Shown: one piece after another, positions 1 through 34,488 of the stretch
How positions within the stretch are numbered: the first letter of the stretch is position 1
Layout: each line of letters begins with the position of its first letter
DNA from: a virus
Lineage: Duplodnaviria; Heunggongvirae; Uroviricota; Caudoviricetes
Virus record (IMG/VR): IMGVR_UViG_2778261527_000008
Length of the DNA: 35,461 nt
Reading direction: 5' to 3' (one strand)
The notes under the pieces: generated by a model
What the model saw: only the letters and a program-made list of their open reading frames with translations
The model's database searches: none
What the model was told of the DNA's origin: nothing
Program-made: the position numbers and the translations under genes

Positions 1-21
1 ATGCGAGGGACAGTCGAAATT

Positions 22-351
22 ATGCGTTATCCCGTCACTCTTACACCCGCGCCGGAAGGCGGTTATATGGTTTCTTTTGTGGATATCCCTGAAGCGTTGA
101 CGCAGGGCGAAACTGTCGCTGAAGCGATGGAAGCGGCAAAAGATGCTTTACTGACCGCATTTGATTTTTATTTTGAAGATAACGAGCTTATCCCGTTACC
201 TTCGCCATTAAATAGTCATGATCACTTTATTGAAGTACCTTTGAGCGTCGCCTCTAAAGTATTGCTGTTAAATGCTTTTTTACAGTCAGAAATCACTCAG
301 CAAGAGTTAGCCAGGCGAATTGGCAAACCTAAATGTTGTAAACCCCAATAA
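22..351 (+). CDS. hicB: HicB-family antitoxin, C-terminally divergent/truncated (frame open from window position 1; first plausible ATG at 22)
   Basis: Translation MRYPVTLTPAPEGGYMVSFVDIPEALTQGETVAEAMEAAKDALLTAF... matches my recollection of the enterobacterial HicB N-terminal domain; ORF ends ...RRIGKPKCCKPQ* at 349-351 where canonical HicB continues into a DNA-binding C-terminus; GC content drops after ~334. Confidence 0.55.
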   Translation: MRYPVTLTPAPEGGYMVSFVDIPEALTQGETVAEAMEAAKDALLTAFDFYFEDNELIPLPSPLNSHDHFIEVPLSVASKVLLLNAFLQSEITQQELARRIGKPKCCKPQ

Positions 352-2948: not shown

Positions 2949-2974
2949 GGGACTCTTCGGAGTCCCTTTTTTTT
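2949..2974 (+). terminator. rho-independent terminator (second, tandem)
   Basis: gggactc-ttcg-gagtccc followed by 8 T. Confidence 0.6.
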
Positions 2975-3215
2975 ATGCAACAATTCGAAGTGTAAGTTTC
3001 TTATGTTGTGTAGGTTTAGTTTCATTTCGCCACTCAGGGAATACATGATCCATCATAACCGCATTAGTCTCATCAATCAGCTTTAAGGACTTTCTCAACG
3101 CCTTATTATCAGCTTTAAGAGTTTTAATCTCTGATTCCATCGCTACCATTCTTTCTTTCATTTTGGTAATTTCTAACATCAGATTACCCAGAAATTCTTT
3201 GTTTTGATTCATCAT
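2973..3215 (-). CDS. hypothetical coiled-coil protein (80 aa)
   Basis: ORF with GAGGGG RBS; heptad-like KxL periodicity; no recognisable catalytic motif. Confidence 0.4.
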   Translation of the reverse strand: MMNQNKEFLGNLMLEITKMKERMVAMESEIKTLKADNKALRKSLKLIDETNAVMMDHVFPEWRNETKPTQHKKLTLRIVA

Positions 3216-3230
3216 AGATTCACCCCTCTA

Positions 3231-4232
3231 TTAAGCTGCGTATGCGTAGGCGCTGTAGTTGGTGTCGTAGATAGCGTCATGCAGTGCCATCTGTGCTTCG
3301 CGGATCTCGTCTTCGTTTACTTCAATCTCTTCTTGTTCTTCTTCGGTATCTTCCCAAGTGGTTTTGAATTTAGCCATAAAGTTATTGCGCAGGGATTCAA
3401 AGTTAGTAACAGGTGCGGATTTTTCTTCAACCGGAACTACTACCGGATCAGCTTCTTTCTGTTCTTCCTGTTCTACTTTTTCACCATTACCCCAGCGATA
3501 GTTAAGGAGTTCTTCCAGTTCTTCATCAATGGATTTTTCTTCAACTGCTTCAACTTCAACCGCTGCTACTTCGAAAGTGGTTTCCTGTGCTGCCAGTTCA
3601 GCTTTCAGAGATGCGTTTTCAGCTTCCAGTTCAGCAATGCGTGCTTTCAGTGCTTCAACTTCGGAAGATTCAACCACTGCAACTTCTTCTTTAACTTCTT
3701 CAACTACTACCGGAGCAACTTCTTTCTGTGCTTCTTTTTTGCAGAAGAAGGAGGAAGTAACCTGTAATGCGTGGTTGTAGAAGGAACCGCCTTTAGCGGT
3801 GTTAACAGTACCAGAAACATCCTTTACAGTGGATTCGGTAGCAACAGTACGGAAGCGTTTTGCGACTTCCTGGGTCTCTACGCCGTATTCGTTACGCTTG
3901 CTCTTGTGATGCATTACAGCACGGAAGCCGGAAGCAGTTTTAACAACAGCCAGATAGTAAGTTTCATCGGCTTTAACAGCACGAGCGAAGCAATAAACGG
4001 ATTCACCTTCTACCAGTGTAGGTTTAACGTGACGTTTGTCGAAACGGTTAGTGATCTGCCATTCAGCACCGTCTTTGATGCCAGCATTCTGACGCATTTC
4101 GGTCAGAGTCTTACCGGATACTACTTCAAAGGATTTGTCTTGTTTGCTTGCTTTACCTTCCATGACGGTAATGTTCAGTTTGCCGTTGGATTTAATAAAC
4201 AGGTTGAAGGTGATGCGCTTAGAATTTTTCAT
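3231..4232 (-). CDS. hypothetical protein: basic N-terminal domain, coiled coil, strongly acidic C-terminal tail
   Basis: 333-aa ORF with GGAG RBS; EVEALKARIAELEAENASLKAELAAQ coiled coil; Glu-rich tail; family not recognised. Confidence 0.5.
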   Translation of the reverse strand: MKNSKRITFNLFIKSNGKLNITVMEGKASKQDKSFEVVSGKTLTEMRQNAGIKDGAEWQITNRFDKRHVKPTLVEGESVYCFARAVKADETYYLAVVKTASGFRAVMHHKSKRNEYGVETQEVAKRFRTVATESTVKDVSGTVNTAKGGSFYNHALQVTSSFFCKKEAQKEVAPVVVEEVKEEVAVVESSEVEALKARIAELEAENASLKAELAAQETTFEVAAVEVEAVEEKSIDEELEELLNYRWGNGEKVEQEEQKEADPVVVPVEEKSAPVTNFESLRNNFMAKFKTTWEDTEEEQEEIEVNEDEIREAQMALHDAIYDTNYSAYAYAA

Positions 4233-4349
4233 TTATAAATACTCCTGAATGCTGTGTTAGTTTTAATTGTTCATATCAAAAGCCTCCTTGCGCCAACAGG
4301 GAGGCTTTTTTATTTTTAAAGCCATCATATAATTCTCAGTGAAAGGTTA

Positions 4350-4532
4350 TTACCAGACCTCGGCGGTAATCTTTACTTTAATGTCATACTTCTTTAAGAG
4401 TTTGTGGAAGGTTGATTGATCAATACCTTCACCTTTAAACCATTCACCCATCACTACATCAGGTGTCAGTTCAAAATAACGCTTTGCCATTTCTAAAACG
4501 ATTTCACGAGTGAACTTAACAGGTCGTGCCAT
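4350..4532 (-). CDS. small hypothetical protein (60 aa), possible DNA-binding regulator
   Basis: ATG preceded by AGGAGG RBS; first gene leftward of the noncoding control region. Confidence 0.4.
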   Translation of the reverse strand: MARPVKFTREIVLEMAKRYFELTPDVVMGEWFKGEGIDQSTFHKLLKKYDIKVKITAEVW

Positions 4533-4874
4533 CTTATATCCTCCTAAATCTGGAATAATGATTTCTTAAAAAAGAGCTTTTCGCTCTGAACAATTCTATT
4601 TATAAAATGTTTTTCGAAAAACCCTGTAAAACCACTGTATATCCGATCAGTGGGAGCACGAATTGCTAAAGAGAAGATTAATAATTAATCAATTCGTACA
4701 TTATTCAATCGAATAAGCACTGTATGTTTAGCCAGTTCTGTATGAATTAACAGTGAGTCAGGGGATTTTCAGAAGTGAACAATCATTTCATGCATGTATT
4801 TATACACGAAAAAATCTTGCGTATCATCAATATGGGGATTGTTTCGAAAATTTCAACCCCTACCAACGAGAAAA

Positions 4875-4903
4875 AGCATAAAATAATCCTTGACAGTTGT
4901 CAA
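4875..4903 (-). promoter_or_regulatory. candidate sigma70 promoter reading leftward, embedded in palindrome TTGACA-gt-TGTCAA
   Basis: on minus strand -35 TTGACA (4903..4898), 17-nt spacer, -10 TATGCT (4880..4875); the palindrome could also be an operator. Confidence 0.3.
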
Positions 4904-5100
4904 TACACTTGATCTAAGCGAGAGATGACTATCAAAATTTTTGTGTGAAAATGGCGGATAACGATTATCAACCTTTATAACCTATTATAGCACGGCGACC
5001 TTTTGATAATTCTTTTTAAATCATGCATTTACGGCGATTTTTGGTGATTTTCTGGTTAAATAATATACAAGAATTTTCTATCAAAATTTTTGATGAAAAA

Positions 5101-5220
5101 CCTACACTACAAACCTACGCTTTAAAGGGATTGGCCTACACTACACTAGCCAGTAAACCTACACTATAACACCCTCAAACCTACACTATGAAACCTACAC
5201 ACCTACACTAACCCTACACT
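5101..5220. repeat. iteron-like direct repeat array, core CCTACACT (6 perfect + 2 variant copies)
   Basis: copies at 5101, 5114(var), 5135, 5158, 5180, 5194(var), 5202, 5213; three successive spacings of 21-23 bp; often preceded by AAA. Confidence 0.6.
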
Positions 5221-5408
5221 TCAATCTCATAAGTGTATGATATTGAAAGACATTTCACCCCACAGACCATAGAATATAAAATTCGAACTAACGTTCTCCT
5301 TTTTGCTCGTTTTCTCTCACTACGTTCAAGAAAGATCTCGCAAAAAGAATACGGCGTAGCCGTGCGCGAAGCGCCCATCAACACCTTCTAAGACCTGCAA
5401 GCAGGATT

Positions 5409-5561
5409 CGAAAGGGATTGGATAGTTCGCTTCGCTCACGTTCACGCCTACGGCGTTCACTCGCTTTTGAAAGGATTTTCTTAGAAAGGGATTTAATACT
5501 AGTTACTAACTGATTCTAGTAAACGAACGAAGTGAGTAACAATCACTTTCTAGAAAGGTAT
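5409..5561. repeat. second direct-repeat family GAAAGG(G)ATT (4 copies)
   Basis: copies at 5409, 5468, 5483, 5552 inside a GC-richer structured segment. Confidence 0.4.
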
Positions 5562-5799
5562 TGGTTATCCCTTCGGGATTGCAACCTTCGGTTGCTAAAT
5601 TGCTTCCTGATTATTATTTCTCCAAAAGAAAGATTCTTATATTCTAAAGATACTTCTTCGTTTTGATGATGATTTAATCAAACCATGAAGGAGGGCTTTA
5701 GCCCGACTGAATACAATCACCTTTCATAATAACAAGAATTTTCTCTTTATAAATAATAGTGAACTTACTTGATTCACTTTCTTTTAGAGGATTTCCACT

Positions 5800-6267
5800 A
5801 TGAACCATAAAATGACTACCACTACTCCTTTTATCCTTCTGGGTCTGGATTCTGATAGCTTCCACAATGACAAGTTAATGAAGATGTTCCGTGAACGTGG
5901 TTATAACATCCTTTTCAACTCTGATGAATCCCATTTCTCTAGTGCATGGTATGCGTTTTACCGTAATAAGAAGCCGACCATTGTAGTTAACTGCTTCACC
6001 GATGAAGAACGCTTAAAGTACCAGGATCTACCAGCAATTATTGTCCGTGATGATCTGCCGTTTCAAGTCCGTTCCGGTGACATTGATCTGGGTAGCTTCG
6101 TTACTGTCTATGAACTGGATGAAGCAATGTTTAACTACGGCAAAGAAACCGCTCAGGAAGCCCCAGAAGAAGATGAACAAGACGAAGATGACGACGACTA
6201 CGCACCAATCTGTTTTTCTTCTCAGAATGGCTTCTACGGTTACGACGAAGGCTTAGATATGCTGTAA
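5800..6267 (+). CDS. hypothetical protein with strongly acidic C-terminal tail (EEDEQDEDDDDY)
   Basis: 155-aa ORF, AGAGGA RBS, E. coli-like codon usage; first rightward gene after the control region. Confidence 0.5.
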   Translation: MNHKMTTTTPFILLGLDSDSFHNDKLMKMFRERGYNILFNSDESHFSSAWYAFYRNKKPTIVVNCFTDEERLKYQDLPAIIVRDDLPFQVRSGDIDLGSFVTVYELDEAMFNYGKETAQEAPEEDEQDEDDDDYAPICFSSQNGFYGYDEGLDML

Positions 6268-6302
6268 GTTAGGTCAACCCTTTGGCGTCTTGTCAAGGGG
6301 TA

Positions 6303-6331
6303 TTGACAAAAATTTCTGACTTTTTTATGAT
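6303..6331 (+). promoter_or_regulatory. candidate sigma70 promoter
   Basis: -35 TTGACA 6303-6308, 17-nt spacer, -10 TATGAT 6326-6331; upstream inverted TGTCAA at 6291-6296. Confidence 0.35.
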
Positions 6332-6389
6332 TGTCGCACTTGACAACTTTAAACCTATTTGACCTAGATTTGTAAATGGGGTGTTAATT

Positions 6390-6536
6390 ATGAACACTAC
6401 TAAGAAAATTGATGGACGTAAAACCCCGAACCGCAAACCGTGGACCCCAAACCTGAATTTCTCAATGGTTGACTTCCATGAACGCCAGCGTCGCATTCAA
6501 GAAGAAATTGATCGCGCGATTGCTGAATCTAAATGA
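6390..6536 (+). CDS. small basic protein (48 aa)
   Basis: ATG at 6390 with GGGG RBS; MNTTKKIDGRKTPNRKPWTPNLNF...; below ORF-track cutoff. Confidence 0.35.
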   Translation: MNTTKKIDGRKTPNRKPWTPNLNFSMVDFHERQRRIQEEIDRAIAESK

Positions 6537-6633
6537 GATAAAAACTTCTTATAAATAAAATTGTTCCGGTGATGCTGCCGGAACTAGGAGGATCAATATC
6601 ATTATCGCAAAACCGTTTAAGGGGAATTTAATT

Positions 6634-7440
6634 ATGAATACTGTTACTGCTATGAATACTACTAAAACCGCTTCCGTGTCTCTGGTTGTTGATAACACCA
6701 AACCGCTGACCATGTCTTCTCGTCAGATCGCTGAATTTACCGGAAAGAAACACTTTCACGTAAAACGCGACATTCGCGAAATGCTGATTACCTTAGAATT
6801 AGATGAATCCAAATTTGGATGCATCTTTTTTGATCAATATGGACGCGAGCAAACAGAATATCACTTGAATGAAGAACTGACTCTGACTCTTGTCACTGGT
6901 TACAATATCCAGATGCGAAACGCGGTTATTCAGGAATGGAAGCGACTGAAAGAAGAAAATGAAAAACTTCGCTCTACTCCGGTTAACCCGTATGCAGACT
7001 TTGAAGAAACCGACTGGATCGAACTGGCGTTAAAGAAAACTCGCGAGAACAAGCAACTGATTACTCTACATCATCGCAAATCCGTAGATAGCCATTCAAT
7101 GACGCGTTTGTTAGGTGCTAAAAAGGGCGCTACGAAGGTTAAAGAAGCACTGACGGCCTTACGTACTGCCGGATACATTGAGCGCGTCTATGATGAAAAT
7201 AACAAGCCGTGTGGGTATGTTGCTAATGATTCCGCGATACCGTTTTGCAGCATGAACGCTCACTATCAACTTTCTTTCACTGTTGATGTGCTTCCGGTGC
7301 TGGTTGAATTGGGTGTTCTTGAAGAAGAACAAAAAGCAGCTTTGACACTGCCTAAACCGAATAACACGATCATGATTCAGAATAAAGCGACTATCATGAT
7401 TCGTCAGAATGTTGGATCGCTAGAACACTTCGGACTGTAA
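6634..7440 (+). CDS. phage regulatory protein, Rha-family antirepressor-like
   Basis: 268 aa; N-terminal SSRQIAEFTGKKHFHVKRDIREML typical of Rha/ORF6N DNA-binding domain; AAGGGG RBS. Confidence 0.55.
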   Translation: MNTVTAMNTTKTASVSLVVDNTKPLTMSSRQIAEFTGKKHFHVKRDIREMLITLELDESKFGCIFFDQYGREQTEYHLNEELTLTLVTGYNIQMRNAVIQEWKRLKEENEKLRSTPVNPYADFEETDWIELALKKTRENKQLITLHHRKSVDSHSMTRLLGAKKGATKVKEALTALRTAGYIERVYDENNKPCGYVANDSAIPFCSMNAHYQLSFTVDVLPVLVELGVLEEEQKAALTLPKPNNTIMIQNKATIMIRQNVGSLEHFGL

Positions 7441-7448
7441 TAATTTTT

Positions 7449-7473
7449 GCCCCTGAATTTCAGGGGCTTTTTT
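7449..7473 (+). terminator. rho-independent terminator
   Basis: gcccctgaa-t-ttcaggggc perfect inverted repeat followed by tttttt. Confidence 0.6.
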
Positions 7474-7522
7474 GTATCTGTAGGTATAAAAAAAGCCAAC
7501 CCCGAAGGATTGGCCTAGAGAA

Positions 7523-7753
7523 TCAAATTCCTGTTGCTTCTACCATTTCACCATCAACCTGAACAAAGAATTTCAAATCAACTTTATGAAGGGATTTGTA
7601 TAGCTGGGCTATGGATAAGCCATGCTCATTTAATACCCGCTCTTTGTTCTCTTTACCTTTCGGTGCTTGATAGTACGCTTTTACAATCGCTGCCAGTTGT
7701 TCACGATTAAAACGGGCAGGGCGACCGCGAGTAGCTTTAGTAGTCATAGTCAT
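7523..7753 (-). CDS. small putative DNA-binding protein with AT-hook-like RGRP motif (76 aa from internal ATG)
   Basis: ORF track starts at a GTG; the ATG at 7753..7751 has a GGAG RBS; MTMTTKATRGRPARF... Confidence 0.4.
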   Translation of the reverse strand: MTMTTKATRGRPARFNREQLAAIVKAYYQAPKGKENKERVLNEHGLSIAQLYKSLHKVDLKFFVQVDGEMVEATGI

Positions 7754-7782
7754 TTTCTCCAAATTAAAGTGAATGTTCACCT

Positions 7783-8388
7783 TTATTTAGAGGACTTACA
7801 TTTTATCGGAAAAAGTTCTCCATCGTCAACCGACATAAAGAACTCTGCCTTAATCCCGTACTTCTTCAACCGTGAATAATATGTACCCCGACTAATATCA
7901 ACCTTGCGCAGCACTTCGAAGAACTCTTTAGGATTCCTGTAATAGTGGCTATATCGCACGTTAGCGAGTTCTACAAACAATTCCCTTGTATCACCATAGC
8001 CTTTCTTGAAAGCCACGTTACGATAGCGTGTAATGGCATGATTCAATCTCTTCTGTTTAAGCACTTCCCTGATCGGCTTCCACTGCAACCGATAGATAGG
8101 ACCGTCATCAATGCGATAATAACGCTTGATATCAAAATCAAACCAATCTCGGACTCTCCGAAACTCTGTATGTGATGTTCTATGCTTCTTAAAGAAGTTG
8201 TGAACGTCTCTATAGCCATTATCACGGTAAAATTCTATTAAAATCTCTTTCGCTTCCTCACGGCTAAACCCAGATGTTGTGTAATCGGTCTTTAAGTGCT
8301 TATGTTTTACTGGCAAACGATATTCATGATCGGTACAACAAGACAAGGCTAATTCTACTTCATCTCTTTGTTGCTGATTAATTAGCAT
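7783..8388 (-). CDS. hypothetical basic protein with C-terminal HTH-like segment
   Basis: 201-aa ORF; Arg/Lys/Tyr-rich; ISRGTYYSRLKKYGI resembles an HTH recognition helix. Confidence 0.45.
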   Translation of the reverse strand: MLINQQQRDEVELALSCCTDHEYRLPVKHKHLKTDYTTSGFSREEAKEILIEFYRDNGYRDVHNFFKKHRTSHTEFRRVRDWFDFDIKRYYRIDDGPIYRLQWKPIREVLKQKRLNHAITRYRNVAFKKGYGDTRELFVELANVRYSHYYRNPKEFFEVLRKVDISRGTYYSRLKKYGIKAEFFMSVDDGELFPIKCKSSK

Positions 8389-8474
8389 ACACCCTCCTTA
8401 AATCTTAATACCGTATTTATCAAAATATAAACAATTTAATAAATACCTTCATATTTCGTAATGAGGGTAATTAC

Positions 8475-10382
8475 ATGAAACTGATTTCTAATAAGGCAAA
8501 ATTAAAAAAGATTCTCAGAAATGCAGCCAAATATATTACGCCACCGCCTAAACTCCTTCCATCGGAATGGTGCGAAGCGAATCTAACGCTAGTCGATGGT
8601 CCTCGTGCTGGGGATAAAGTTAAATTGCTGTCATTTCAGAAAGGCATGATTGATGCTCCTTTCCTTGAGAAGAAAAAGAAGTACGTTTTTTGTACGAGTG
8701 CGCAGATCGGAAAGACGACCATCATGTCAGGGATCATGTTTAACCAGATGGCAAACGATCCGTGTAATATCATTATCGGGCAAAGTACCGCTAAAGAAGT
8801 GGCTATGTACTTGAATACTAAGATCCGTCCTTCTATTGAAGCATGTCCGGCATTACAGGAAGTGGTAACAGATAAGAATGATCGTAATGCGGTAAACAAC
8901 AATAACCAGATTCAGCTAAAAACAAACCATTTCCTTTACATGGTTTCTTTGACCAGTCCTTCAAGTTTGCGCGGGCGTACTGCCAAGTTAGGGATTGTAG
9001 ACGAATGCGACGCAGCAACAATCACCGAAGAAGGTTGCCCGGTGGCACTAACTGCAAACCGTTTAACTACCTTTGGTGATGAAGCTCGATTGATTGTTTC
9101 TAGTACCCCGACCAATAAGCTGGGAATCATTAACCAGCAATGGTTATCAAGTGATATGCGTATGTTTTTTGTTCCGTGTCCTCATTGCGGGGAACACCAG
9201 GTGATCGAGTGGGAAAACGTTCAATTTGAATGGCGTAACATTGATGGTAAGAACTTACCCGATCCTGATACCGCTCGTTATATTTGCCCCCACTGTAAGA
9301 ACGCATGGACAGAAGGGGAACGAATCAGGGCAGTAGCGCAAGGCGAGTGGAGAGCAACCCGTGAAAGTGAAGTAGCAGGATTCTGGATCAGTCGTCTGTA
9401 TTCACCTTTCAGCACGATCCGCGCTTGTGTGGTTGATTTTAGTCATGCGTGGCAATCCTTTGATTTACAATCCTTTTTTAACACCGTGTTAGGCAAGGTA
9501 TACGACGATCAGGACACGGCAGTAGAAGCAAATGAACTGGAACAACTCAAAACAGATGTTTCTATCGAGAATATCCCTGATGACGTGATTTTCTTGTGTG
9601 CGGGTACTGACCAGCAATTAGATCGCGCAGAAACTACGATCATGGGCGTGGCAAAGGATAAGATTTATATTCTGGATCACCGCAGCTTTTACGATCATAA
9701 CTGTGAACGATATGAATCACCTGTATGGGATAGATTAATCAACTTCCATAAAACCAAATTTACTACTGTATCGGGTGATCGTGTTCCTATGCTCGCCAGC
9801 TTCCTTGATACATCGAACGGTCGATTCACTCAAGCTGGATACCGTATTTGCGGCAAGTGGAAGAACTTACACGCTATCAAAGGTAGTTCTGCTGGTAACG
9901 CTCCGATCATTCCGGTTAAACCTACCCGCACAGGTGGTCATGAATTGCTTATGCTGGGCGTTAACGTTGGGAAATCCGCTGTTCGTGAAATGCTGGTTAG
10001 AAACCTGAAAGATAATCCTCATATTGGCTTAGAAATATCAGAAACCATTCCTGATGATTATCTCGATCAGCTTTTGAGTGAATCCATCAAGCGTACTACT
10101 ACTGGCGTGCGTTGGGTGAAAAATCCAGGTAGTACCCGAAACGAGGCTCTCGACTGTCTGGTTTATAGCTATGCTGCTTCTCGCTACGTTCTTTCAAAAA
10201 TGTCATGGGATAAACTCATTGCAATGAAAGACAGCTTAAACCGTGTTGTCGAAGAATCCGTAGAAGCTCCTAAATCGCAATCTGACGAGCAAATCGAAGA
10301 AAATAAGCCAATCACACGACCACAACGTAAAAACATCGCCAGACGCCCAAATAGAGGCCGTAGCTGGGTAACATCGTTCTAA
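8475..10382 (+). CDS. terminase large subunit, lambda GpA family
   Basis: 635 aa, size and motifs (zinc-finger-like CPHCG...CPHC segment) consistent with GpA-type terminases; GAGGG RBS. Confidence 0.8.
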
Positions 10383-14714: not shown

Positions 14715-15005
14715 ATGTTCAAATTATCAGAATCACAATTAAATCGAATGTTTAAAAGTGCTCCTGTATTTTCGGTGGAAGGTGGTAAATCAATTCGTGC
14801 TTATCATGAAATTACTACTACCGACGAATCGGGGGTAATGACAGAAACAGAATTTCTATTCTGTCGTGAGGGAGACTTAAAGCAAGGTGATATTGTCACA
14901 GTAGAAAACCAGCGTTTCAAAGTTCAATACGTTAAGCGCAATGGTGACAATACTTGTGATTGCTTTATCACTTTAGCAGGGGGTACACATGCTCGCTACC
15001 GTTAA
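14715..15005 (+). CDS. head-tail adaptor / head completion protein (candidate)
   Basis: 96-aa ORF directly after capsid gene, AGGGGG RBS; synteny only. Confidence 0.4.
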   Translation: MFKLSESQLNRMFKSAPVFSVEGGKSIRAYHEITTTDESGVMTETEFLFCREGDLKQGDIVTVENQRFKVQYVKRNGDNTCDCFITLAGGTHARYR

Positions 15006-15411
15006 TAATATGCCGAGACTGAAAATCAAACGCGCCTTGCAAGATATTATCGAACAAGATTTAGGTCTGGCTTTAAACGTAGAACAAACTCAGCAAGGCT
15101 TTAGTGATGACGTGGTTTGTTGGATTACTGGCATGAATGAGACTTACACAAGGGTCCGTGGCGGTAATGCAATGCAAGCTGAATGCGTTATCGAAATGCA
15201 GTTATATTCTCAGATTCATGAAACGAAAATTCATGAGGGTATTTGCCAGATAATCCAGATTCAGCCAGATAACCCACGATTTAAAGATTTGGGCTTCTCT
15301 ATTTCAGATATCACTCCAGTAGCTTCTAATACCGATTATGACGATGATTCTAGTGATGGGGGTATCGTTGGGACACTTAGCCTTAAATTTTCTTATCTAG
15401 CGCGTTTTTAA
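14989..15411 (+). CDS. head-tail joining or tail completion protein (candidate)
   Basis: 140-aa ORF overlapping previous stop by 17 nt; synteny only. Confidence 0.35.
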   Translation: MLATVNNMPRLKIKRALQDIIEQDLGLALNVEQTQQGFSDDVVCWITGMNETYTRVRGGNAMQAECVIEMQLYSQIHETKIHEGICQIIQIQPDNPRFKDLGFSISDITPVASNTDYDDDSSDGGIVGTLSLKFSYLARF

Positions 15412-34023: not shown

Positions 34024-34443
34024 TTAAAGAATTTCACGGCAGCTAATCAGGGAATAAGACGTATCACCTTTTTTAACATCAAATATAGGTGCGCCATCTA
34101 CAGAATGCAGATATTTGATGTAGGATTTACCATCTTCGGAACCATAATATTCTTCTTTCTCGTTCTTATCTTCTTTCAGTTTTGGGCTTTTGATTGTTTT
34201 ATCAAATACCGGATCGTTGAAAGCAAATTGACTATTATCATCATTCACTCGAACCTTTACACCGATAAAACCACGGTATTTGCCAGACGGCGCATGATAA
34301 TAACGGTCGCCATCACTCAGGTAGCGTGTATCATCTCCTTTATATTCGAAGTAGGAATTGCACACATAATAGGTATAGGTATTAGCATTCGCAGCACCAA
34401 CCAAACCCAGAGCAAGAACAACACCAGCGATAATCTTTTTCAT
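34024..34443 (-). CDS. secreted/periplasmic hypothetical protein
   Basis: 139 aa; signal peptide MKKIIAGVVLALGLVGAANA; two Cys. Confidence 0.4.
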   Translation of the reverse strand: MKKIIAGVVLALGLVGAANANTYTYYVCNSYFEYKGDDTRYLSDGDRYYHAPSGKYRGFIGVKVRVNDDNSQFAFNDPVFDKTIKSPKLKEDKNEKEEYYGSEDGKSYIKYLHSVDGAPIFDVKKGDTSYSLISCREIL

Positions 34444-34488
34444 AGTAGAATTTCCTCTTGTTGTTTGAATTACGATATATTTATATCA

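Follow-up and report, generated by a model that had tools for sequence, protein, structure and literature searches.

The 35,461-nucleotide virus sequence IMGVR_UViG_2778261527_000008 (Caudoviricetes), analysed here over its whole length and called the window, is a complete temperate siphophage integrated in the antitoxin gene hicB. Between its two terminase genes it carries a gene for a 268-amino-acid Rha-like regulator (6634..7440, + strand), convergent with the genes for two small basic proteins, p201 and h76, of 201 and 76 amino acids (7783..8388 and 7523..7753, both on the - strand). The region consists of two independent early-region units: in one, the promoter P6303 is followed by an open reading frame (ORF) of 51 amino acids, the Rha-like gene and a terminator; in the other, p201 is followed by h76. 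The reading that we tentatively prefer is that p201, with or without h76, is a lytic-cycle regulator of the late-operon promoter region, and that the Rha-like protein, hereafter Rha, is a separate, exchangeable early regulator. An earlier note on this DNA had taken the three genes for a secondary, immI-style immunity module made of an antirepressor and small DNA-binding proteins. The genes that it set inside the packaging region do lie between the two terminase genes, and its Rha domain, its small convergent ORFs and its promoter at 6303 all stand; the module itself was not borne out.

Allele and synteny comparisons covered 40 related loci, among them a Proteus relative (L039) and a Salmonella relative (L040). 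Across these loci the alleles of the Rha N-domain, the Rha C-domain, h76 and p201 assort independently, and the Proteus relative retains the 201/76 pair without a Rha gene, which speaks against a single cognate module. The order large terminase gene, divergent p201, h76 recurs in every relative examined (E. coli, Salmonella, Proteus). On this comparison, p201 and h76 form a core operon and the Rha gene is an exchangeable cassette. Each unit has its own predicted intrinsic terminator, at 7449..7467 (+) for Rha and at 7493..7516 (-) for p201/h76.

Both small ORFs are annotated in RefSeq, as are Rha and the 51-amino-acid ORF, on an E. coli chromosome 99.9% identical to the window. Synteny is conserved around their homologues, which come from E. 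coli, Salmonella, Shigella and Proteus, and because the ratio of nonsynonymous to synonymous substitution rates among them is 0.09-0.26, a sign of purifying selection, p201 and h76 are real protein-coding genes. In the ORF list h76 is extended mechanically to a GTG at 7780; RefSeq gives it 74 amino acids. The two proteins have isoelectric points (pI) of 9.6 (p201) and 9.8 (h76). In E. coli PEC41 (locus L044, 1828-2874), a gene for a 348-amino-acid integrase-core (rve) protein lies between p201 and h76, both ORFs being intact.

A third protein, h60, is a 60-amino-acid paralogue of h76 and is encoded at 4350..4532 (-) by the first gene of the leftward early unit, ahead of a candidate initiator of 333 amino acids. 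The h76 sequence aligns with h60 (E 2e-5), and h60 in turn can be aligned to either half of p201, better to the C-terminal one (E 1e-3) than to the N-terminal one; in profile-profile comparison, residues 14-70 of h76 match residues 39-97 of p201 with a probability of 90% (E 1.5e-6). AlphaFold predicts for p201 two domains of three helices and a beta-hairpin, at residues 36-100 (nt 8089-8283) and 130-195 (nt 7804-8001), with a predicted local distance difference test score (pLDDT) of about 85; the N-terminus and the linker between the domains are predicted to be disordered. These tandem domains are of the h76/h60 type, h76 itself being predicted as an arm, a three-helix helix-turn-helix (HTH) and a beta-hairpin. 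The predicted small-protein domains show the three-helix bundle with an HTH superposable on known DNA-binding domains that defines tri-helical or winged HTH proteins, in agreement with the earlier description of both proteins as putative DNA binders. That description was accurate for the basic character of p201 and for its C-terminal HTH; it had confined the HTH to the C-terminus, and two such domains are predicted.

Judged by their sequences, h76, p201 and h60 constitute one orphan HTH family that is described in no database. An exhaustive hidden Markov model search of 1.84 billion representative proteins with an h76+h60 profile recovered four real clusters, all from this lineage, and a fifth match was rejected as a repetitive false positive. 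Word-indexed searches returned solely unnamed prophage proteins of E. coli, Salmonella, Shigella and Proteus, and the p201 profile gave nothing usable against PDB sequences. None of the three proteins matched Peptidase_S24 or HTH_3. For p201 and h76, searches of Pfam, PHROGs and NCBIfam yielded neither a late-activator family (RinA/ArpU/LtrC/Alt, Mor/C, Ogr, Q) nor a small-terminase family.

The RGRP motif of h76, which the earlier note had described as AT-hook-like, is present and conserved, and it lies in a short N-terminal arm directly before the HTH. It occupies residues 9-12 (nt 7718-7729) within TRGRPxRF, a stretch at least 90% conserved among homologues that immediately precedes helix 1. 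Nearly all h76 homologues have RGRP (one cluster reads RGCP), and P12 is invariant; at the same position h60 reads ARP, and RGRP is absent from p201. Similar arms occur in the DNA-binding domains of Hin and Tc3, a likeness that serves as a lead rather than a test.

The p201 gene diverges from the large terminase gene (8475-10382, +), which is of the lambda gpA type and is the first gene of the structural operon. The 86 bp between them (8389..8474) form a divergent control region that is near-identical in all 40 loci, including those in which p201 is 51% or the large terminase 57% identical. Conservation reaches 0.94-0.96 over its peak at 8430-8474, against 0.5-0.9 in the coding flanks, and the synonymous divergence of p201 among E. 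coli copies is 0.2-0.6. The region contains an inverted repeat, GTATTTAT (8413-8420) and ATAAATAC (8439-8446), whose arms are kept at variable distance: most loci have a spacer of 18 bp, Proteus one of 26 bp and two recombinants one of 2 bp. The promoter scan found no near-consensus sigma-70 promoter for p201 or the large terminase gene in the 86-bp intergenic, in either direction, which fits activator-dependent promoters. The large terminase gene itself exists in two allele classes, about 57% identical, that swap among otherwise near-identical phages (L004, L006, L007 and others); their divergence starts shortly 3' of the conserved first ~45 nt of the gene.

In the reading preferred here, p201, alone or with h76, would bind the conserved divergent region and would switch on or time the structural operon that begins with the large terminase gene, presumably by activation rather than repression; it probably regulates its own operon too. 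Its two flexibly linked HTH domains could touch both arms of the inverted repeat, which are kept despite the changes in spacing. The position of p201 would be that of the late activators RinA and LtrC, or of lambda Q, just upstream of the packaging genes; this position and the conservation of the 86 bp are the support for a role in transcribing the structural operon. RinA-type activators bind the promoter just upstream of terS (PMC3152322, PMC3753634).

Rha belongs to the other unit. Its N-terminal domain matches Pfam PF09669 (Phage_pRha) over residues 27-106 with E 8.9e-13 and 49.1 bits, above the cut-off of 29.9, and the motif on which the earlier identification had relied lies at residues 29-51. 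Against the stricter NCBIfam model TIGR02681 the protein scores 33.4 bits, under the cut-off of 45.95. AlphaFold gives the whole protein a mean pLDDT of 66, with a confident winged helix at residues 27-114 (nt 6712-6975) and a second winged-helix-like domain at residues 154-236 (nt 7093-7341; pLDDT 70-80) that has no family match. Foldseek comparison of the model with the PDB gave MarR, MerR and RacA matches, all non-significant, and the sequence gave nothing usable against PDB sequences. A domain search of the C-terminal half had been suggested in the earlier note; for these 155 residues, with both C-domain allele classes tested, Pfam and PHROGs gave no family, the best matches being HTH_27 (E 0.11) and a DnaD-like loader (E 0.16).

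PHROGs labelled anti-repressor or transcriptional regulator match Rha solely through the same N-terminal stretch; the antirepressor label, which the earlier note had adopted, rests on annotation transfer. Neither homology to a proven antirepressor domain (P22 Ant, Gifsy-type, 186 Tum) nor a promoter under LexA or Arc/Mnt control directly ahead of the gene was found: the C-terminal half has no match, and P6303 has no LexA-like box. In phi80 and P22, the phages of the founding rha genes, rha belongs to the late operon and is known for inhibiting growth on hosts deficient in integration host factor (IHF) (PMC4936722). Over the 40 loci there are at least nine classes of Rha N-domain and three of C-domain. 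The DEC5A orthologue keeps the first 22 residues and a C-domain that is ~90% identical, and its N-domain fails the Pfam Rha model, being distantly related through phrog_63 only. N-domains are thus exchanged on a more constant C-domain, and the close full-length Rha homologues that were checked all belong to this phage lineage. Rha would act as a non-essential, exchangeable early DNA-binding regulator whose targets probably lie outside its own early region.

P6303 (6303..6331, +; TTGACA-17-TATGAT) matches sigma-70 at 11 of 12 positions, the best in the scanned region, and lies among five TTGAC half-sites. It would drive the 51-amino-acid basic ORF (6381..6536, +), the first gene of the rightward early unit, together with Rha. 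The promoter region is near-identical in all E. coli loci, mostly kept in the Salmonella relative and different in the Proteus relative; in many relatives an unrelated gene for 110 amino acids replaces the 51-amino-acid ORF. Just 5' of the Rha gene, at 6540..6584 (+), stands a 27-nt element, AAAAACTTCTTATAAATAAAATTGTTC, followed by a hairpin, with a second copy in inverted orientation (27 nt, 89%) before the h60 gene. The Rha phenotype includes regulation of the gene by IHF; inspection of the element by eye turned up no convincing IHF consensus.

The question of which protein maintains lysogeny bears on both units. In the complete genomes CE0007a (NZ_CP119011.1), DEC5A and PSJ-07 the prophage, ~35 kb long, is flanked by both halves of hicB, and the window extends from one half to a few bases short of the other. 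It is the entire prophage, and Pfam, PHROGs and NCBIfam identify no CI/Cro-type repressor and no known replication protein anywhere within it. The earlier statement that the primary repressor lies outside the window is therefore not upheld, since the regulators of this phage must be encoded within it, nor are the three genes a secondary module, because the whole prophage has no separate primary region (immC) and no recognisable CI/Cro repressor. Natural knock-outs are also available. In one E. coli assembly, a deletion of 1.29 kb (window ~6739-8024) removes Rha from residue 36 onwards, h76, the second HTH of p201 and the two terminators. On the same contig, the remaining called genes are full length (large terminase, portal, capsid, tail fibre, initiator candidate, h60 and small terminase). 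Two further assemblies have p201 cut at 130 residues with h76 intact, an IS5-family element separates the start of p201 from the large terminase gene in strain HeN100, and in strain PSJ-07 p201 and the structural genes are gone and the early genes remain. Loss of the sole maintenance repressor from an otherwise intact prophage should kill, and loss of a gene for lytic growth is usual prophage decay. Given that expected lethality, the natural knock-outs count against p201 and h76 as lysogeny-holding repressors, a role that the immI-style module of the earlier note would give them, and they argue against either unit supplying the lysogeny-maintaining repressor.

Several observations tell against assigning p201 to the late promoter region. 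DNA binding by p201 and h76 is so far a prediction from modelled structure. No 11-mer outside its own gene co-varies with the alleles of h76, of the Rha N-domain or of the Rha C-domain, so no binding site is pinned (the 155-amino-acid gene described below likewise has no co-varying 11-mer), and the method works, because the same test located the origin for the 333-amino-acid gene. The enrichment of ATAAATAC is borderline, with five copies against 2.1 expected and five of 100 shuffles reaching five. The small terminase operon should also be late, and a search for a late-promoter motif common to the upstream regions of both terminase genes returned only AT-rich 8-mers. The conservation of the intergenic could in part reflect a recombination linker between mosaic modules. 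Finally, the natural knock-outs may have arisen in already inactive prophages, which makes them weaker evidence than a clean deletion.

Other explanations account for parts of these data. If p201 and/or h76 were the immunity repressors and Rha their antirepressor, this would be the primary switch, the window being a whole prophage. We consider this improbable: lysogens outlive the loss of p201 and h76 with apparently intact lytic genes, the units converge without a common operator region, Rha and p201/h76 vary independently in their alleles, the Proteus relative does without Rha, and neither an S24 nor a LexA-like cleavage domain is present. Immunity regions, moreover, normally diversify along with their repressors, and here all relatives share the same candidate operators and the same p201 intergenic. 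A role in packaging, by cos or pac recognition or by terminase assembly, complementing or replacing the distant Nu1-like subunit, would explain why p201 and h76 sit directly beside the large terminase gene in every relative and why the small terminase gene lies an unusual 6.2 kb away. Small terminase subunits use HTH or winged-helix domains, and divergent terminase gene layouts occur in P2-like phages. We rate such a role as very unlikely, for a Nu1-like subunit exists and the GC-rich island upstream of it is the better cos candidate. The 57%-identical large-terminase alleles swap without a matching change in p201, neither co-variation with the large subunit nor a small-terminase family match was found for p201 or h76, and the intergenic is AT-rich without a cosN-like GC stretch.

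That Rha works in trans on other prophages or host promoters, through cross-antirepression or exclusion, with the 201/76 pair likewise accessory and outside the phage's own developmental circuit, accords with its nine or more N-domain classes and with the lack of a co-varying site in the early region. It accords as well with the dispensability of Rha in the Proteus relative and in the deletion lysogen, and with the founding phi80/P22 phenotype, a host-dependent effect on phage growth (PMC4936722). As an account of the whole region it seems quite unlikely: unlike morons, p201 and h76 are universally kept at a fixed place beside the most conserved non-coding stretch, PADLOC gives no defence-system matches, and P6303 resembles a repressible early promoter, not a moron promoter. 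There is little probability, lastly, that h76 (or h60) is the directionality factor of the serine integrase, or that Rha, through a DnaD-like winged helix, binds the origin or loads the helicase. Several directionality factors of serine integrases are small, ~60-75 amino acids, and none is recognisable in the window; Rha also resembles lambda O in joining a constant C-domain to a DNA-binding N-domain that varies. Its match to the DnaD-like loader PHROG is at noise level and not significant, iteron type follows the 333-amino-acid gene and not any Rha, h60 or h76 allele, and h76 alleles are not tied to the integration site, since hicB-type left ends and the PHP-gene site are each found with both classes.

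The preferred assignment of p201 to the late promoter region and of Rha to early regulation has its setting in the interval between the terminase genes. A gap of 6.2 kb lies between the Nu1-like small terminase gene (1704-2258; phrog_57, E 1.5e-11) and the large one, a layout kept in the E. coli, Salmonella and Proteus relatives. This interval is the phage's single early/regulatory region, and the genes discussed here make up its right-hand third; they are part of a complete early region, not an island among packaging genes. PADLOC gave no matches for 10 early-region and right-arm proteins, and a defence-island interpretation of the interval was rejected. Upstream of the small terminase gene, a GC-rich island at ~1496-1650 in otherwise AT-rich DNA is a possible cos site.

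An ORF-poor stretch at 4533-5800 carries an iteron array at 5100-5225, with five copies of ACCTACACTA (at most one mismatch) and further degenerate copies; window-wide there are eight matches at this stringency, and none of 100 shuffles reaches eight. All 40 loci carry the array, and its sequence falls into three or more types (A, B and C); iterons of relatives that are not of the window's type include TTTTGCCCCTGAA and ATCCCTAGC. Its type follows the allele of the 333-amino-acid (or ~313-amino-acid) gene in 16/16 and 17/17 cases when alleles are clustered at 80%, a threshold of choice. Allele-specific 11-mers of the 333-amino-acid gene map to 5101-5462, across the independently assorting h60 gene and its leader. 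That gene (3231-4232, -), which has no database family match, and the iterons are a strong candidate for a new replication initiator and its origin; listed with them is an ORF for 80 amino acids (2973-3215, -). Between the origin and P6303, at 5800-6267 (+), lies the gene for a 155-amino-acid protein with pI 4.2 and a strongly acidic C-terminal tail, which has two main allele classes and no family match.

The two best sigma-70 promoters of the scanned region, 4903-4875 (-) and P6303 (6303-6331, +), point away from the ORF-poor stretch and have TATTGACAA and TGTCAAGG in common. Both lie within TTGACA/TGTCAA dyads (6268-6380 and 4875-4905), namely TTGACAACTGTCAAGG, and CTTGTCAAGGGGTATTGACAA with three further TTGAC sites; all E. 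coli relatives keep the dyads and the Salmonella relative does so for the most part, and they are possible operators for a repressor. Between the 4903 promoter and the h60 gene stand three LexA-like boxes (CTGTAT-N7-CAG) at 4635-4650, 4720-4735 and 4738-4753, against 0.16 expected; none of 100 shuffles reaches three. About two-thirds of relatives keep the boxes; in the remaining third or so they are missing, and the leader is a different one that contains TTAACA repeats. A box close to the consensus (18/20) is present in the Salmonella relative.

The 27-nt AT-rich element and hairpin that precede the h60 gene (4573-4614, -) and the Rha gene (6540-6584, +) include TATAAATA, and the hairpin before the h60 gene has a T-run and looks like a terminator. 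TATAAATA occurs at 4234, 4597, 4797, 5748, 6550 and 34478, five of the six sites falling inside 2.3 kb of the early region; the site at 34478 is 35 nt upstream of an end gene (34024-34443, -). A T4-like late promoter was considered because TATAAATA precedes several early genes, and it was rejected as unsupported, there being six copies against 2.5 expected and no gp55-like protein, and the sites suiting ordinary -10 elements.

A wider reading, which we regard as rather unlikely, is that this lineage makes its lysis-lysogeny and early-to-late switches without CI or Cro: host LexA would hold the early leftward operon, the GRP-arm winged-HTH family (h60, h76, p201) would add the phage's own logic, and p201 would be a new late regulator reading two half-sites of variable spacing. 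If it were true, a common E. coli/Salmonella prophage would run a circuit of parts that no database names, namely a Rha-type regulator whose DNA-binding heads can be swapped, three uses of one orphan HTH family and, probably, direct control by LexA. This would bear on predicting which prophages are inducible by DNA-damaging antibiotics and on the annotation of many hypothetical genes beside terminase genes. The name Rha does not imply an antirepressor, and a cassette of regulators lying between terminase genes need not be a second immunity region.

The prophage encodes a lambda gpA-type large terminase, a portal, a protease-capsid fusion, tail genes, an M15 endolysin and a large serine recombinase. 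With a full structural gene set present, a satellite or phage-inducible chromosomal island was rejected. The region is present in 63 of 5,426 complete E. coli genomes (~1%), and the lineage is a widespread, unstudied prophage type of E. coli and Salmonella, seemingly without a classical repressor. The large terminase of the nearest cultured relative is 43% identical and the next best ~31%; DCP80, the record of the closest cultured large terminase, offered no useful context, and neither the region (nucleotide and protein) nor p201 matched any of 50,697 cultured phage records. Integration occurs at two or more sites in this lineage: one is inside hicB, as in the window, and another beside a short PHP-domain ORF and adjoining a 2-hydroxyacid dehydrogenase gene (loci L036, L038, L040, L046-L050 and L053, compared with window 1-351 and the right end). 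Secreted or lipoprotein-like genes at both prophage ends (575-1345 and 34024-34443, -), one of them LprI-like, look like lysogenic-conversion morons. ARAGORN called a 91-nt tRNA-Glu at 15176-15266 (-) within the ORF 14989-15411, probably a false positive by its length and position, and an Rfam scan of the window detected no RNA family.

Among known systems, the small proteins can be set beside HTH proteins with a GRP minor-groove arm (Hin recombinase, Tc3/IS630 transposase) and beside tandem-HTH binders (CENP-B 1-129, the paired domain). Rha resembles its family (PF09669; rha of phi80, orf201 of P22) in an N-domain (residues 27-106) above the Pfam cut-off with a predicted winged helix, and in the location of its gene near late and packaging genes, not in a classical immunity region. 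It differs in its C-terminal 155 residues, which have no family and a predicted second winged helix, in its early-looking sigma-70 promoter, and in the replacement of its N-domain by very divergent homologues in close relatives. In immI of P22, mnt and arc-ant diverge from one shared operator region, and the small proteins Arc and Mnt are ribbon-helix-helix proteins. That cassette lies with its regulators among morphogenesis and packaging genes, outside the immC-type region (PMC8022706), and this placement is what the present genes share with it. They are not of the immI type, none of its three defining features having been found: the units converge with promoters ~2 kb apart, the small proteins are HTH and not ribbon-helix-helix, and the phage has no separate primary immunity region. 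Nor do the genes form a linked cassette, or include an Ant-type domain.

Like the late activators RinA, ArpU, LtrC and Alt, and in function lambda Q, Mu C and P2 Ogr, p201 and h76 are small, predicted DNA-binding proteins at the junction of early and structural genes, with a promoter before the packaging genes that here is also weak or non-consensus. They differ in having no sequence or profile similarity to these activators and in the orientation of their operon, which is divergent from the late operon and not co-directional with it; here the large subunit gene opens the structural operon, the small subunit gene being 6 kb away. The N-terminal HTH and S24 autocleavage domain of CI/LexA-type repressors are not the architecture of p201, h76 or h60. 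In GIL01, lysogeny depends on host LexA in place of a CI-type repressor, aided by small phage-encoded helpers (PMC4551915, PMC6182141). The likeness, in context and not in the three genes, would be the absence of a CI-type repressor together with LexA-like boxes clustered in the stretch from a strong early promoter to the first early gene. GIL01 differs in being a linear Bacillus tectivirus with gp7, of which no homologue is known here, and about one-third of the present relatives have a box-free leader. Taken with these systems, what is new is the p201/h76/h60 family, with membership shown in no activator, repressor or small-terminase family, and what is known is the HTH fold class on which that family is built and the family of the Rha N-domain.

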